Virus record (IMG/VR): IMGVR_UViG_642918914_000001
Span: 167,256 to 231,255 of that record
Reading direction: 5' to 3' (one strand)
DNA: 64,000 nt
From: a virus
Lineage: Duplodnaviria > Caudoviricetes
Part shown: positions 4,244 through 63,980 of the stretch, in pieces
Numbering within the stretch: position 1 is the stretch's first letter
Layout: every line of letters starts with the position of its first letter
Notes under the pieces: generated by a model
Told to the model about the DNA's origin: nothing
What the model saw: the letters and a program-made list of their open reading frames with translations, nothing else
Database searches by the model: none
Position numbers and translations under genes: made by a program

Positions 4244-4396
4244 GTCTGTTCCTTGTGCTTTATGATAGTCAGACTATTTACTGCGGAGTTATGAAGGCGA
4301 GGACAGCGAGTGCGATAAAAATGAAGACGCACGTCCAGCGTGGAAACACACGCGCCGCGAAGATGGAAGCACTCAGGCTGTAGTAGTCGTGACGAT

Positions 4397-19132: not shown

Positions 19133-19207
19133 CAACTCCCTTAGTGGGTTCGAACCACTGCCTGCCCCCGTCGGGACCGCTCTACCACTCTAAGCTAAAG
19201 GGAATTG
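19133..19207 (-). ncRNA. tRNA-like element with truncated (about 4-nt) anticodon loop and no CCA
   Basis: D arm GCTT-AGAGTGGTA-GAGC, T arm AGTGG-TTCGAAC-CCACT, extended acceptor CAATTCCCTT/AAGGGAGTTG. Confidence 0.55.
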
Positions 19208-21543: not shown

Positions 21544-21669
21544 TGGGCGACCGGAAGGAATCGAACCTCCGTCTGCAGGTACCAATCTCAGCATTCGATC
21601 CGGCCTGTTAAGGTTCCCGCGTGTCTAGCGCCGAGATGCACTGCAATTCTGCCACTGAACTACGATCGC
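21544..21669 (-). ncRNA. tRNA-like RNA with a 62-nt structured insert replacing the anticodon loop
   Basis: Acceptor GCGATCG/CGGTCGC then CCA; D arm GTTC-AGTGGCA-GAAT; stem TGCAG/CTGCA; T arm GGAGG-TTCGATT-CCTTC; insert contains an ATCTCGGC/GCTGAGAT stem. Confidence 0.72.
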
Positions 21670-21969: not shown

Positions 21970-22388
21970 CTGGACTTCGGGCACTAACCCCAATCTAACT
22001 GTTCGTTACATCCACCCTAGTTACGATAATGAGAAAACCCGACCCTCTACCGCTGAGGTACCGCCGTCCTTAATCAACTCGTGAGAATTGACTAAGGCAC
22101 GGCGGACGGGATTCGAACCCGCGTCTTTCAGGCTTAACCATGGCTTCTTAGAGTAATCGCCATGGCAGGGTGCCGAACTACTGAACTTAGATTGCTTACA
22201 GGTCACACGTTAGAGGTAATACGCGAACGATAATCGAACTCGACGCCTGATTAGGGCGTTGCGTCTACCAGTTTCGCCACTCCTACATCAAACACGCTGC
22301 AAGCAACACGCTTGATGCAGGAGGTTGGATTCGAACCAACAGTGAGTTCCGTATAACGCTAACGACTACGCTAACGCTTCCTCTATGC
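21970..22388 (-). ncRNA. Structured RNA with two circularly permuted tRNA-like domains (YrlA-like topology)
   Basis: In each domain the T arm precedes the D arm and the acceptor stem is closed by a long hairpin (cores at 22236-22349 and 22035-22135); closing helices 22211-22216/22380-22385 and 21976-21984/22170-22177; GCAGTAAATA motif directly upstream. Confidence 0.8.
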
Positions 22389-22401
22389 TTTATTTACTGC
22401 T

Positions 22402-59583: not shown

Positions 59584-60381
59584 ATGAATCCGATGTTCGC
59601 AGTACAGATCACCGGACGTGACGACCGCGAGTTGCACAAGACGGTGGACGCATTGAAGGCGGCTGGCCTTGACTACGAGACCTTCGGGTGTATCCCGTTC
59701 ACAGACGAGATCACCAACCTCGAAGCGTTCCCATCAGATCGCCGCGTGATACCACTGGCTGGGACCAAGGTTCTCAGCATGTGGCAGCGTGGGTGCCTGC
59801 CTCCAAACTGGCATGTATTCTACGATGCCGGACATCTGGACCAGTACCTCGCGCAGCGCTTCTACGGCACCAACCTGCTGAACTACTGGGCTGAGGTCCG
59901 GCCATTCTCGCAGATGAAGGATCGAGTGTGGGACGTGCCGATGTTCGTCAAGCCCACGGATGACGGCAAGGCGTTTGCCGGTTTGGTCCTTGAAGGTGAG
60001 AGCTTGAGTCAAGCGTTGGAAAAGCAAACGCACCAAGTGATCGCCGATGATCAGCCGATCCTCGTCTCCGACTGCAAGACGCTGGGCCGTGAGTTCCGCC
60101 TGTTCGTTGTGGACGGCTACGTGGTAGACATCTCAGAGTATCGGAATCGTGGCCAGATTCAACACAAGGATGTGGCGCCCCGGTTGAAGGCTGACCTCCG
60201 TGACTACTTCCAGTCCGTATGCCATCCCAGCGCGCCACGCGCTTACGTGATGGATGTTGGTGAAGTGTGGAAGAACGGCGAATGGCGCTGGTGCATCATC
60301 GAGCTGAACTGCTTCAACTGTAGCGGTGCCTACACTGTGGACCGTGCTGCGGTCTACGGTGCGGTCGCCAACGCGATCTAA
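59584..60381 (+). CDS. ATP-grasp domain protein (R2K/DUF4343-like)
   Basis: FVKPTDDGKAFAG, EFRLFVVDG, YVMDVG, IIELNCFNCSG.Y. Confidence 0.75.
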   Translation: MNPMFAVQITGRDDRELHKTVDALKAAGLDYETFGCIPFTDEITNLEAFPSDRRVIPLAGTKVLSMWQRGCLPPNWHVFYDAGHLDQYLAQRFYGTNLLNYWAEVRPFSQMKDRVWDVPMFVKPTDDGKAFAGLVLEGESLSQALEKQTHQVIADDQPILVSDCKTLGREFRLFVVDGYVVDISEYRNRGQIQHKDVAPRLKADLRDYFQSVCHPSAPRAYVMDVGEVWKNGEWRWCIIELNCFNCSGAYTVDRAAVYGAVANAI

Positions 60382-60777: not shown

Positions 60778-61125
60778 ATGAGTCGCAAGCAGAAAATGAC
60801 GGAGTTCCAGCGTCAGCAGTATCTGGGCATCGCTGCAGTCCTGTGCGAAGTAGACACCGACGTCATCTATCGCGCGTTCATGGAGCAGCGAAAGCACGAT
60901 CGCAAAACGAAGACCTACAGCGCGCAGCAGCGCTACTCGCGCAGCGACACTTCTCGCATGCGGCTGTTCGCTCGCTTCTGCTATCATCGCCTGCAGTCCG
61001 AGCTCAACAAGTGCCGCGATCTGCAACAGGTCCAAGAGTTGAGCGCGTCGCTGAACGCAGCACTCTTGCCTACGAATGCCGAGCAGGGCTACGCGCTGGC
61101 TGAAACGCGCTTCGACCTGCTGTAA
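60778..61125 (+). CDS. Hypothetical early protein
   Basis: ATG after the leader hairpin. Confidence 0.65.
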   Translation: MSRKQKMTEFQRQQYLGIAAVLCEVDTDVIYRAFMEQRKHDRKTKTYSAQQRYSRSDTSRMRLFARFCYHRLQSELNKCRDLQQVQELSASLNAALLPTNAEQGYALAETRFDLL

Positions 61126-61159
61126 ACCGAACACCCTCCCATCGAAAAGGAGCATCATC

Positions 61160-61375
61160 ATGCTGTATATCGCCGTCTTCGCCCATCATGGGGATCAAGG
61201 TCACGTCCTGTGGGATTGCGCCGCGTCCAACGCCAACACCGCAGATTCCAAGTGCCGCACGCTCGAAGCTCTCAATCCGGAGCACGCCTTCAGCGTGATC
61301 ACCGAACGCGAGGCTCGCAATCTGTTCGTGGGCAACGGTCATAACTTCGCTTGCCCGCGCCTCACGCTGCACTGA
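61160..61375 (+). CDS. Small hypothetical early protein
   Basis: ATG after the leader hairpin. Confidence 0.6.
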   Translation: MLYIAVFAHHGDQGHVLWDCAASNANTADSKCRTLEALNPEHAFSVITEREARNLFVGNGHNFACPRLTLH

Positions 61376-61407
61376 GTCCGGCACCGTTCGCTGTCCAAGG
61401 AGCTGTC

Positions 61408-61914
61408 ATGTCAGTCAAGTTCAAGGTAGGGGATCGAGTCACTCACTGCGATTCCCTGTTCCCGGGTCAGGGAACGGTCGTAGCCGTGGAAACCCTCCTC
61501 CATCTGCAGAACGTGAAGGTGGAGTGGGACAAGGATCGCGGCGGCTTCGGCGGTTCGGTGTGGCTGCACGGAGAGCATCTGTCCCTGTCGCTTGCTGAGG
61601 CACTCGTGCCCACTGATTCGCAGCCTGCGCCTCGCGTGTTGATGTGGCGACAGTTTGATGCCGATGGCAACAGTCGTACAAGCTGGGTCGTGTATACAGC
61701 GGCGCACCCGAAGCTGGCGAAGATTACGCAGACGCTGGCGCGTCTTGCCACCAAGAATGATGGCCGGATCGAGGTCACGCTACGCGATCCGCAGTACTTC
61801 ACCTTCGATACGCCCGAATGGCGTCCGACGTTCACGCAGAGTGTGTTCGCAACGATTGAGCAGGCGAAGGCCGCTGTCGAGGAGTGTTGGCACGGTCCAT
61901 TGGAACAGCAGTAA
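61408..61914 (+). CDS. Hypothetical protein with N-terminal SH3/KOW-like domain
   Basis: KFKVGDRV...GQGTVVAV...VKVEWD; AAGGAG RBS. Confidence 0.6.
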   Translation: MSVKFKVGDRVTHCDSLFPGQGTVVAVETLLHLQNVKVEWDKDRGGFGGSVWLHGEHLSLSLAEALVPTDSQPAPRVLMWRQFDADGNSRTSWVVYTAAHPKLAKITQTLARLATKNDGRIEVTLRDPQYFTFDTPEWRPTFTQSVFATIEQAKAAVEECWHGPLEQQ

Positions 61915-61917
61915 ATA
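61908..61917 (+). promoter_or_regulatory. Phage promoter motif GCAGTAAATA (representative copy)
   Basis: About 12 copies just upstream of genes or RNAs, all oriented with transcription. Confidence 0.7.
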
Positions 61918-61933
61918 GAGTGTACAGGTCATC

Positions 61934-62276
61934 GCTCTTGCTCTATGTAGTCCCGCCGGAGGCCTAGCTCCGGAGTTCGGGGACGAGAAGAACTAGACCC
62001 CCTTCTCGCATCATTCGTGCGCCGCCCCCATTGCTAGGCGCGGGTGCGCTGTCCGCTAACAGCAGCCCGGTCGCCGCGTGGAATCGCGTGAAGTAGAGCA
62101 AGAGCACCCGTTTCACCCTGTCACTATGGAGTTCTGCCGTGGGGTTTATCCTTCCCCCGTCAACAGAGACGAGAGGTTTTCGCTATTTTCCCTCATCGTA
62201 TCATTCGTGGGTGAGTGGGCTTGAGTAGAGCGCGCCAACGCTCCTCGTCCAATCTGCCTGTGAAGTAGTGGCAGGG
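61934..62276 (+). ncRNA. Tandem pair of four-way-junction RNA motifs
   Basis: Closing stems 61934-61945/62094-62105 (12 bp) and 62116-62126/62266-62276 (11 bp); shared core CTATG.AGT, GACGAG, TCGYATCATTCGTG, GTGAAGTAG. Confidence 0.75.
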
Positions 62277-62342
62277 TTCCTTTCAAGTTAGAGGCTCGCT
62301 GGCCTCCTCCCTTAACGGCCAGCACATTTCGAGGATCATCTC

Positions 62343-63410
62343 ATGAGCAAGAGCAAGAAGGCAGTCAACACCACGACCAAAGCCGCGAAGAAGGCAGATG
62401 CGGCCAGCAAGAAGTCGGCTGTGAAGGTGGTGGAAGCCAAGGCGCTGGACAAGCGCTTCAAGAAGGGTGCCATCGTGTATCACACTGGTGGTCTGGGTCC
62501 GGTCAAGTTCTACGAACCGCCGAAGGACAGCAGCGAGTATGCAGTGGTGCGAACGCACGCTGGCACCGAGGCTCGCGTTCTGGCCTCGCAATTGCGACTG
62601 GCAACCGGCGCCGAAGTCAAGACCTACACCAAGCGCGTCCGCGAACATCGCAAGTTGGAAAAGGCCAGCGAGCTGCGGCGCATCACTCGCAAGGGTGCGA
62701 TCGTGTTCCACGCCGCGATGGGTCCGGTCAAGATGGTGGGTCCGGCACCGCACGATGGACAGTTCATCGTTCGACTGCCCCGTGGCGAAGAGTCGCCGGT
62801 GCTGTACAGCAATCTGCGTCTGGCCACCCCGTCCGAGGTCAAGGAATACAGCAAGAAGGTGGACGAACGCAAGAAGGCTGCGGCGCAGGACGCCACCAAG
62901 AAATTCGCGTTCCCCACTTCGGCCAGCGTGGAAGCGGCCAAGGCCGAGGAATCCGCCAAGGTTGAACAGCCGACCGAAGCGCGCCTCAACGGTTTCATCA
63001 TCCATGTGGGCGATACCGTGCTGGGCGATGTGGAAGGTACGCTGGCGGCTATCGTGGTCAGTATCCTGCCGAATCGCAATCTGGTGGTTCGCGAGGAGGG
63101 CAGCGACGCCAACCAGATCTGGACCGAGGGCTCGGTTCATGGCGTCCGTCCGGCAGCCGAGGATCGTGATCCGAGTGTCCTGGGCCAGAAGTTCAAGGAA
63201 CTGAAGATCAAGTTCGAAGAAGTGGGGCTGTTCGCTCCGTTCACGTACAAGGGGGTGCACCACGTCAAGGTCTCCAAGTCCAACGCGATCCGCGCCGTGA
63301 TCGAAGGCACGCCGGTCGCTCCGCGCGCCGTCTTGGCAACGGACGATGCTCCGATGAAGGGCTCGCACGTTGTCCGATTCCGCAAGAGCGACAAGGTCAC
63401 CCGCTTCTAA
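62343..63410 (+). CDS. Basic hypothetical protein with internal duplicated module
   Basis: Two KGAIV.H...GPVK...LRLAT..EVK.Y.K repeats; GAGGA RBS. Confidence 0.7.
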   Translation: MSKSKKAVNTTTKAAKKADAASKKSAVKVVEAKALDKRFKKGAIVYHTGGLGPVKFYEPPKDSSEYAVVRTHAGTEARVLASQLRLATGAEVKTYTKRVREHRKLEKASELRRITRKGAIVFHAAMGPVKMVGPAPHDGQFIVRLPRGEESPVLYSNLRLATPSEVKEYSKKVDERKKAAAQDATKKFAFPTSASVEAAKAEESAKVEQPTEARLNGFIIHVGDTVLGDVEGTLAAIVVSILPNRNLVVREEGSDANQIWTEGSVHGVRPAAEDRDPSVLGQKFKELKIKFEEVGLFAPFTYKGVHHVKVSKSNAIRAVIEGTPVAPRAVLATDDAPMKGSHVVRFRKSDKVTRF

Positions 63411-63569
63411 GCCGACTCGCGCAGTTCCCAATTTGACGGAGCGGGTTTGTGGTACACTGTGCCCAGTGACCCGCTCTGTCGATCACAAGTCGTACATCCA
63501 GCAGTAAATAATCCGCGTGCAAGCTGCACGCATCCAACTTTCAACTCTTCCGTTACAAGGAACATCATC

Positions 63570-63980
63570 ATGGCAAAGCAACAAGAAGCATCCGCCGCTC
63601 CGAAGGCAAACCCGATCGTCGCACTGAAGGCCGCCGTCGGTCAGTTCACCAAGCTGTCGCGCGAAGCCGCCAAGAAGGATCGCCTGATCGCGAACAAGGA
63701 CAAGCTGATCGCCGCACTCAAGGCCAAGCTGCAAGGCAAGGCTGCCAACGGCGCCGCCAAGGCCGCTCCGGCCGCGAAGGGCGCGAAGGTCAAGGTTGAG
63801 AAGGCTGCTCCGGCTGCCAAGAAGGCTGCGAAGGGCGCGAAGGCCGCTCCGCAGGGCAAGGGTCCGAAGGCCAAGCCGGCGAAGGCTGGTAAGGTGGCTC
63901 CCGCTGCCAAGAAGGGCGCCAAGGCCAAGGCTGCCAAGCCGGCGAAGGCTGCGAAGGGCGGCGACGACTTCCTGATCTAA
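63570..63980 (+). CDS. Histone H1-like Lys/Ala-rich protein ending GGDDFLI
   Basis: AAPAAKK repeats; AAGGA RBS; upstream GCAGTAAATA. Confidence 0.7.
   Translation: MAKQQEASAAPKANPIVALKAAVGQFTKLSREAAKKDRLIANKDKLIAALKAKLQGKAANGAAKAAPAAKGAKVKVEKAAPAAKKAAKGAKAAPQGKGPKAKPAKAGKVAPAAKKGAKAKAAKPAKAAKGGDDFLI

Follow-up and report, generated by a model that had tools for sequence, protein, structure and literature searches.

The tandem glycine riboswitch consists of two homologous multi-helix domains placed head to tail in a 5' leader, where the core is kept and the helices vary. The tRNA cloverleaf joins its four arms through linkers of 2, 1, 4-5 and 0 nt, and four-way junctions are also found in the natural hairpin and twister-sister ribozymes. 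In the T4 gene 32 leader and in ribosomal-protein leaders a bound protein sets its own translation, and the T4 species 1 and 2 RNAs are orphan stable phage RNAs. The retron msr-msd is closed by 12-nt repeats that enclose short hairpins and then one long variable hairpin, with a G after the 5' arm. Here we describe a tandem pair of RNA domains from a phage genome that shares some feature with each of these systems. Its fold matches no described family; structured phage leaders and orphan phage RNAs, on the other hand, are of an already known kind.

The element lies at the end of a 231,255-bp virus genome that is rated complete (G000). We analysed its bases 167256-231255, a stretch of 64,000 nt that we call the window and whose numbering is used throughout. 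The first-pass annotation of this DNA had pointed to an ORF-free gap of about 420 nt right after a short motif, and the gap was borne out. The motif, GCAGTAAATA, occupies positions 61908-61917 on the + strand, the upstream ORF stops inside it (TAA at 61912-61914), and the next long ORF begins with the ATG at 62343. When all six frames of the whole genome were considered, the longest stretch without any ORF of at least 60 aa was the one at 61919-62282 (364 nt); the next-longest stretches include tRNA regions. The only ORFs listed within the gap are 48-59 aa long, together with the terminal part of an antisense 382-aa frame (62283..63431), which lies opposite the 62343 gene and is taken to be spurious. 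The neighbouring genes are all on the + strand.

The topoisomerase genes just upstream share 66-67% DNA identity with the Burkholderia phages BcepSaruman, BcepSauron and BCSR5. According to a preprint on phage Matilda, these phages stand well apart from the nucleus-forming phiKZ phages, and their next relative is Ralstonia phage RSL1; the preprint contains nothing on promoters or non-coding RNA (10.64898/2026.10.21.760668). The literature searched for the fold, outside the original RSL1 description and its supplements, gave no description of it. Directly after the topoisomerase genes there is also a 265-aa ORF (59584-60381, + strand) with R2K-clade ATP-grasp domains, which matches R2K_2 with E 7.6e-23 and R2K_3 with E 1.3e-20.

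The gap holds two four-way junctions on the + strand. Unit 1 (61934..62105, 172 nt) starts 17 nt downstream of GCAGTAAATA and was delimited by folds, a covariance model and RNAalifold. Its P1 pairs 61934-61946 with 62093-62105 and is followed by J1/2 (61947-61949), P2 (about 61950-61984), P3 (about 61984-62008), J3/4 (CAUCA, 62009-62013) and P4 (62014-62092). A 9-nt linker (62106..62114), set by the sequence and the covariance-model match, leads to unit 2 (62115..62277, 163 nt). This second unit, located by its match to the unit-1 model and by its minimum-energy fold, has the same layout, with P1 formed by 62115-62128 and 62264-62277 and P4 at 62204-62264.

Both closing stems had been described as fully paired. 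This is true for unit 1, where GCTCTTGCTCTA and TAGAGCAAGAGC form a 12-nt perfect inverted repeat, but unit 2 is fully paired only with one U.G wobble. One extra stem pair, a U.G on the junction side, is possible in both units, and an A-U pair at the outer end extends unit 2 to 62115-62277. The junction linkers measure 3, 0-1, 5-6 and 0 nt in both units: P1 joins P4 with 0 nt, P2 joins P3 with 0-1 nt, and the crossing strands are of 3 nt (G-K-A) and 5-6 nt ((G)YAUCA). Both units carry tandem G.U/U.G pairs at the P4 base.

The four-helix layout proposed from inspection was reproduced by folding. In unit 2 the four-way junction is the structure of minimum free energy (-60.4 kcal/mol), and RNAalifold predicts the same junction for the two units. 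The junction of unit 1 is co-optimal, since its energy with P4 forced is in an exact tie with the minimum (-78.0 kcal/mol). The pair probabilities at the P4 base were only 0.21-0.29 in unit 1 versus 0.61-0.97 in unit 2. Compared with dinucleotide shuffles, the z-score of the fold was -3.15 in unit 1, -2.54 in unit 2 and -3.08 over the gap as a whole.

The RNA would be read on the + strand. G.U pairs make up 13 of the 108 pair cells, and since they would become A.C mismatches on the complementary strand, the + strand is preferred. Unit 2 folds to -60.4 kcal/mol on the + strand and to -52.2 on the - strand, and unit 1 about equally on both (-78.0 on + and -79.4 on -). This equality would suit an element that works as DNA, whether as a cruciform or single-strand origin, as a site of recombination or as a pair of small mobile elements, now decayed, that had terminal inverted repeats, and so would the perfect 12-bp terminal inverted repeats and the direct repeat of GAGCAAGAGC around unit 2 and the tail. 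However, the G.U cells are strand-specific and unit 2 is better on the + strand by 8 kcal/mol. Moreover, the genome holds two copies only, 61% identical to each other, none was present in 154 bacterial genomes searched, and neither a transposase nor a reverse transcriptase was found. We therefore regard a DNA element as very improbable.

Homology of the units was established with R1, a covariance model for which unit 1 was the only input. It found unit 2 with 40.7 bits and E 1.6e-8 in the 64-kb window searched on both strands, and the next match reached 15.0 bits. Together with the common RNAalifold junction, this bears out a tandem duplication with a shared junction core. The two units are identical in 82 of 135 aligned columns (61%), so the earlier view of their peripheral helices as unrelated in sequence was overstated. 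Identity clusters in CUAUGKAGU, GACGAGA, UCGYAUCAUUCGUG and YGUGAAGUAG.

Compensated pairing is spread over all four helices. Both sides changed with pairing kept in 14 of the 59 model pairs (5 of 13 in P1, 3 in P2, 1 in P3 and 5 in P4). Paired cells make up 97.2% of the 108, and 0 of 500 shuffles reached the pairing or the compensation values, figures that are somewhat inflated because the unit alignment was fitted to the unit-1-derived model. When the partners were slid by 1-3 columns, 43-52% paired and 1-2 compensated pairs were left. The compensation in P1 can be read straight from the sequence. The covariation comes from two paralogs aligned by the model, because homologs outside near-identical strains were not found. 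Judged from the sequences of the two copies, homologous units with a shared core and compensated stems have the look of a selected RNA structure, and what they form is a real, orphan and new RNA fold.

The same comparison bears on whether the gap could be a functionless relic, that is, a GC-rich spacer that was duplicated in tandem long ago and that either pairs by accident or merely stabilises the 5' end of the mRNA through its pairing. Such a relic would fit with the confinement to one lineage, the orphan flanking genes in a variable region and the moderate fold z-scores (-2.5 to -3.2). However, 14 compensated pairs at 61% identity imply selection for the four helices in both copies, and long identical junction strings persist amid the diverged helices. 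We find this explanation quite unlikely.

Next, the element was compared with known families. At gathering scores, a search of the whole window with Rfam 15 (4227 models) returned only three tRNAs, all of them elsewhere. With E up to 10, positions 61800-62450 gave only two chance-level rows of 13-14 bits. No hammerhead, twister, pistol, HDV-like or glycine-riboswitch consensus had been recognised by eye, and these searches agree with that.

Like the tandem glycine riboswitch, the phage element has two homologous multi-helix domains head to tail in what would be a 5' leader, with the core kept and varying helices. Unlike it, the domains are four-way and not three-way, P1 has 12-13 bp, there is no Rfam match, and the element is found in one lineage. 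The likeness to the tRNA cloverleaf is in topology only, namely four arms and linkers of 3, 0-1, 5-6 and 0 nt. The phage arms are far longer than those of tRNA or YrlA and have no D-loop or T-loop sequences, CCA end or anticodon, and neither cmscan with the tRNA model (RF00005) nor ARAGORN made a tRNA call within 61915-62342. The Y RNA/YrlA family (RF02553) was rejected, with no match in the gap and the TROVE/Ro protein absent from the genome. The element also resembles a retron msr-msd in its closing repeats of the a1/a2 type, which are perfect over 12 nt in unit 1 and span 11-12 nt, one wobble included, in unit 2, in the order of its hairpins and in the G after the 5' arm. A retron was rejected, since a reverse transcriptase is absent nearby and, above the Pfam cut-off, genome-wide; the best match to PF00078 in the genome had 13.9 bits against a cut-off of 29.6, is 168 kb off and contains an internal stop.

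Ribozymes, aptamers or protein sponges had been suggested by the first-pass annotation. The homologous core, the compensated stems and the lack of an Rfam match are in line with this suggestion, but nothing in them is specific to any of the three. Self-cleaving ribozymes could be considered in view of the four-way junctions of the hairpin and twister-sister classes. No ribozyme family, including these two, matched even at E up to 10. In addition, the conserved bases are at helix ends and in junction strands and not in paired internal loops, and related copies elsewhere were not found. We rate self-cleavage as extremely improbable.

For the search for relatives we used a two-unit covariance model (R2). 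In G000 it recovered both units and nothing else. None of the 77 related jumbo-phage records that were reached via the topoisomerase gene gave a match at E up to 1 (0/3, 0/47 and 0/27, with the loci L044, L061 and L064 left out). With the filters off, R2 gave only simple hairpins of at most 14.4 bits in 11 syntenic loci. Its best E in three Burkholderiales genomes was 0.064, and 151 more genomes of this order gave none at E up to 0.01. A blastn search of the gap against 50,697 phage records returned no match either. Absence of homologs had been named beforehand as a result that would refute function; outside near-identical strains, the covariance model gave none in the 77 phage records or the 151 Burkholderiales genomes, and the pattern scans gave no true hit.

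Pattern scans led to the same picture. In viral contigs, ATCATTCGTG-N40-70-GTGAAGTAG occurred in 11 stretches, which were AT-rich, of few repeated types and with surroundings unlike those of the units, and we take them as coding sequence and chance. A stricter 24-position pattern was found in 0 metagenome contigs and 0 genome contigs. The pattern GACGAGA-N10-30-TCGYATYATTCGTG was present in 15 genome stretches and one viral stretch; the top model score, 15.9 bits in a Nannocystales MAG, is taken as chance. The genome pattern scans covered 596 Gb.

The flanking genes are orphans. Relatives of the flanking proteins were absent in viral and metagenome contigs, and a search of 5.8 billion proteins with a flanking protein gave a single match, 99% identical. 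In the related genomes G002 and G001, the interval from the topoisomerase gene to a Lys/Ala-rich gene is shorter and differently filled, and in G002 the homolog of the C-terminal part of the 62343 gene has no long leader. Since no relatives were found and the interval differs in related genomes, the element is lineage-specific and sits in a variable region. We also looked through the large ORF-free gaps in G002, G004 and G006 for analogous elements and found one gap of 497 nt, in G004 and at another locus. This ORF-free stretch (G004:C1:126869-127369) comes right after a GTAAATA motif and is syntenic with a tRNA-like cluster of G000. From our reading of its fold, it opens with a domain of about 85 nt that is closed by a stem of some twelve pairs.

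Near-identical strains are present in other metagenomes. The stretch, or part of it, was found in seven public runs from five studies, none of which is listed as an RNA run. A 10.4-kb contig of strain X1, which is ~98% identical, spans 61000-63400 with 40 differences and 9 gaps, and just 5 of the 40 differences are inside the 428-nt gap. Three of these five are at sites that are unpaired in the model. At 62022 and 62027, both unpaired in the junction model, C is changed to T. The change of G to A at 62219, seen in X1 and also in strain X2, turns a G.U of unit 2 into A-U. The change of G to C at 62042 breaks a predicted inner pair of P4, with no compensating change listed. The fifth, C to T at 62012, is in J3/4 of unit 1. 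Thus the junction core described as conserved is shared by both units, but its C at 62012 is T in X1. Related strains thus retain the element, with variation at one junction base, and the divergence is too low for a test of the structure.

The motif ahead of unit 1 is a promoter-like phage signal. In G000 the 10-mer GCAGTAAATA has 11 exact copies and GTAAATA has 35, which makes GTAAATA the commonest of 95 seven-mers of equal composition (median count 3); the second and third commonest seven-mers are overlapping frames of the same motif. All GTAAATA copies have a same-strand ORF start downstream, mostly at 9-80 nt. Its TAA closes a long frame in only 9 of the 35 copies, so the motif is more than the context of a stop codon. 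In some copies the Shine-Dalgarno sequence follows the motif immediately and an ATG is only 9-11 nt away, so that the RNA would have to start at or very near the motif end. From its position and enrichment, we infer that GTAAATA is probably a phage promoter or transcript-start signal. It resembles the T4 late promoter, TATAAATA. A literature search on GTAAATA found nothing relevant. Copies in the window are found, for example, at 4275, 12524, 22391, 23284, 37196, 52409, 61908 and 63501, and the relatives G002 and G005-G007 have the motif too. GCAGTAAATA is also present ahead of the next gene (63501) and ahead of the homolog of that gene in G002.

Two copies of GTAAATA are outliers in the distance to their gene: the present one, with 425 nt, and the one at 22391 on the - strand, with 438 nt, which leads into a cluster of tRNA-like RNAs. 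Within this cluster, the region 22014-22391 (-) downstream of the motif contains two circularly permuted tRNA-like modules, neither of which ARAGORN calls. Both align with positions 86-149/151 of the model for the beta-proteobacterial two-piece tmRNA, with 24.9 and 20.5 bits. A YrlA-like match at 22014-22141 has 32 bits against a gathering score of 69, again without an ARAGORN call. At 21546-21669 (-) there is a tRNA match of 41.3 bits with a 62-nt insertion at the place of the anticodon loop, which may be intron-bearing or disrupted. Between tRNA-Gly and tRNA-Pro, ARAGORN reports a 'tRNA-???' with a two-base anticodon (19134-19205, -), probably a pseudo-tRNA.

Since GCAGTAAATA is a recurrent pre-gene signal, which the first-pass annotation had missed, the units would make up the 5' portion of the 62343 transcript. 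Alternatively, they could be one or two stand-alone stable non-coding RNAs, cut from the 62343 message or ending before it and acting in trans as a scaffold, decoy or sponge. The promoter-like signal directly upstream points in this direction, and the sole other long signal-to-gene distance in the genome leads to RNA genes. The closed P1 stems of 12-13 bp resemble the processed ends of stable RNAs, and the P1 of unit 2 is directly followed by UUCCUUUC. The T4 species 1 and 2 RNAs would be a parallel, being phage-encoded, tightly folded, without a family and driven by a phage signal; unlike such orphan stable phage RNAs, the present element comes as a tandem pair, at a distance from the tRNA cluster. 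However, no terminator-like site was found on the + strand from unit 2 to the ATG at 62343, no processing signal, target or partner is known, and there is no conservation beyond the lineage. We consider stand-alone RNAs possible but doubtful.

Between unit 2 and the gene, sequence and folds define a tail with two mutually exclusive hairpins (62291..62323, +). One pairs GAGGC with GCCUC (62291-62306) and the other GCUGGCC with GGCCAGC (62298-62304 with 62317-62323), and a U-run is absent after either of them. The translation start region of the 62343 gene follows (62331..62354, +), with the Shine-Dalgarno GAGGA at 62331-62335 and the ATG at 62343. Mutually exclusive hairpins ahead of a Shine-Dalgarno sequence would be in place in a new class of riboswitch, in which tandem aptamers for a small molecule control the 62343 gene. 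A kept core with variable, compensated helices, in tandem in a 5' leader, is likewise the anatomy of tandem riboswitches. However, neither hairpin overlaps a unit, a P1 of 12-13 bp is unusually long, and no Rfam riboswitch matched at E up to 10. As a rule, riboswitch classes are widespread, and we found this element in 0 of 151 Burkholderiales genomes, in 0 of 77 phage records and nowhere in the pattern scans of 596 Gb. A metabolite-binding pair is, in our view, improbable.

The downstream gene (62343..63410, +) encodes 355 aa and was characterised from the ORF list, Pfam and PHROG searches and an AlphaFold model. Its product has a Lys-rich N-terminus followed by two repeats, each predicted to combine a small five-stranded beta-barrel with a long helix, and is an orphan except for its last ~70-115 residues. 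Pfam and PHROGs gave no family for the flanking proteins, and no relatedness was detectable between the upstream and the downstream protein. The mean pLDDT of the AlphaFold model was 47.7, and the two repeats alone reached about 70-80. A structure search of the Atlas with the product gave TM values of at most 0.33. VIA matched the repeats to barrels of the Tudor/KOW/SH3 type (PHF19, NusG, TDRD3, Spt5 and the C-terminal domain of UvrD) with Z 6-7.4, which the tool rates as common. The matches are therefore a lead and not evidence, and the predicted barrels hint only weakly at nucleic-acid or polymerase binding.

The start of this gene also has a sequence relation to unit 1. GAGCAAGAGC at 62345-62354 is the same as the 3' arm of the unit-1 P1 and hence complementary to its 5' arm (61934-61943). 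This 10-nt perfect complement comprises the G of the ATG and the next nine bases, and the estimated chance of it in a 40-nt start window is ~2e-4, before the post-hoc choice is considered. The two copies of GAGCAAGAGC (62096-62105 and 62345-62354) form a direct repeat that flanks unit 2 and the tail. In the equilibrium fold of the leader with the start region, the pairing of the P1 arm with the start did not form; both units were closed and the start paired locally.

We tentatively favour a structured 5' leader of a late 62343 message, whose two units bind a shared factor and act in cis. The gap would encode a pair of paralogous, structured RNA domains on the + strand, each about 165-172 nt long, and transcription from GCAGTAAATA would place them in the first ~420 nt of the late 62343 mRNA. 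The core was kept twice while the helices drifted with compensation, which suggests that something recognises the core, while the helices merely hold its shape. The junction core would thus be the putative site where one shared factor binds, with a protein more likely than a metabolite. Given the linker lengths, P1-P4 and P2-P3 are predicted to stack coaxially, as in tRNA. Both modules may then tune the translation or the stability of the downstream message in cis. In one possible route, the P1 helix of unit 1 would compete with the pairing of its 5' arm to the start-codon region, so that opening of P1 could mask the start site. Since folding thermodynamics alone fails to mask the start, such a route would need a factor.

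A cis-acting leader of this kind would be like the T4 gene 32 and ribosomal-protein leaders in the proposed protein binding that sets translation of its own message, with the P1 arm complementary to the start. Unlike them, it has no relation to them in sequence or fold, is much larger and duplicated, and its binding is putative. Several observations count against it. With 12-13 pairs, P1 is very stable for a switching helix, the equilibrium fold leaves both units closed, the G002 homolog lacks the long leader, and the P4-base probabilities of unit 1 are 0.2-0.3. In X1, moreover, one change falls in J3/4 and another disrupts an inner P4 pair.

A broader reading is that the element represents a new class of phage RNA module, a tandem four-way junction of tRNA topology placed just behind a late promoter, which would capture or sense a specific factor. 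Candidates for this factor would be a host or phage protein, the RNA polymerase itself or a nucleotide signal, and late gene expression could be set or a host function disarmed. We hold such a class to be unlikely. The orphan is unusually well defined: its copies test each other, its strand is clear, its start signal is likely and the gene downstream is defined. It is also directly accessible to experiment. If the core binds a factor, a little-studied lineage would provide a new RNA fold and, with it, a new level at which late genes are controlled or the host is interfered with. Even if it binds nothing, no other non-coding stretch of the genome is as long, and an annotation as RNA is warranted. 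Jumbo phages are increasingly found with many structured RNAs of unassigned role.

Both ORFs that flank the RNA gap show further features. The orphan ORF upstream contains a hypervariable patch (61591-61728), where strain X1 differs from the window by ~24 substitutions and several small indels. X2 shares the variation of this patch in part; the whole RNA gap has only 5 changes in X1. The two ORFs are joined by a perfect 13-nt inverted repeat (61545-61557 and 62513-62525), for which the rough chance expectation in a 1.4-kb stretch is ~0.015, and there are more long imperfect repeats (61304-61317 with 62567-80, and 62294-62310 with 62657-73). Further downstream, at 63567-63980 (+), a Lys/Ala-rich histone-H1-like protein of 137 aa is encoded behind its own GCAGTAAATA at 63501, and both the gene and the motif are kept in G002.
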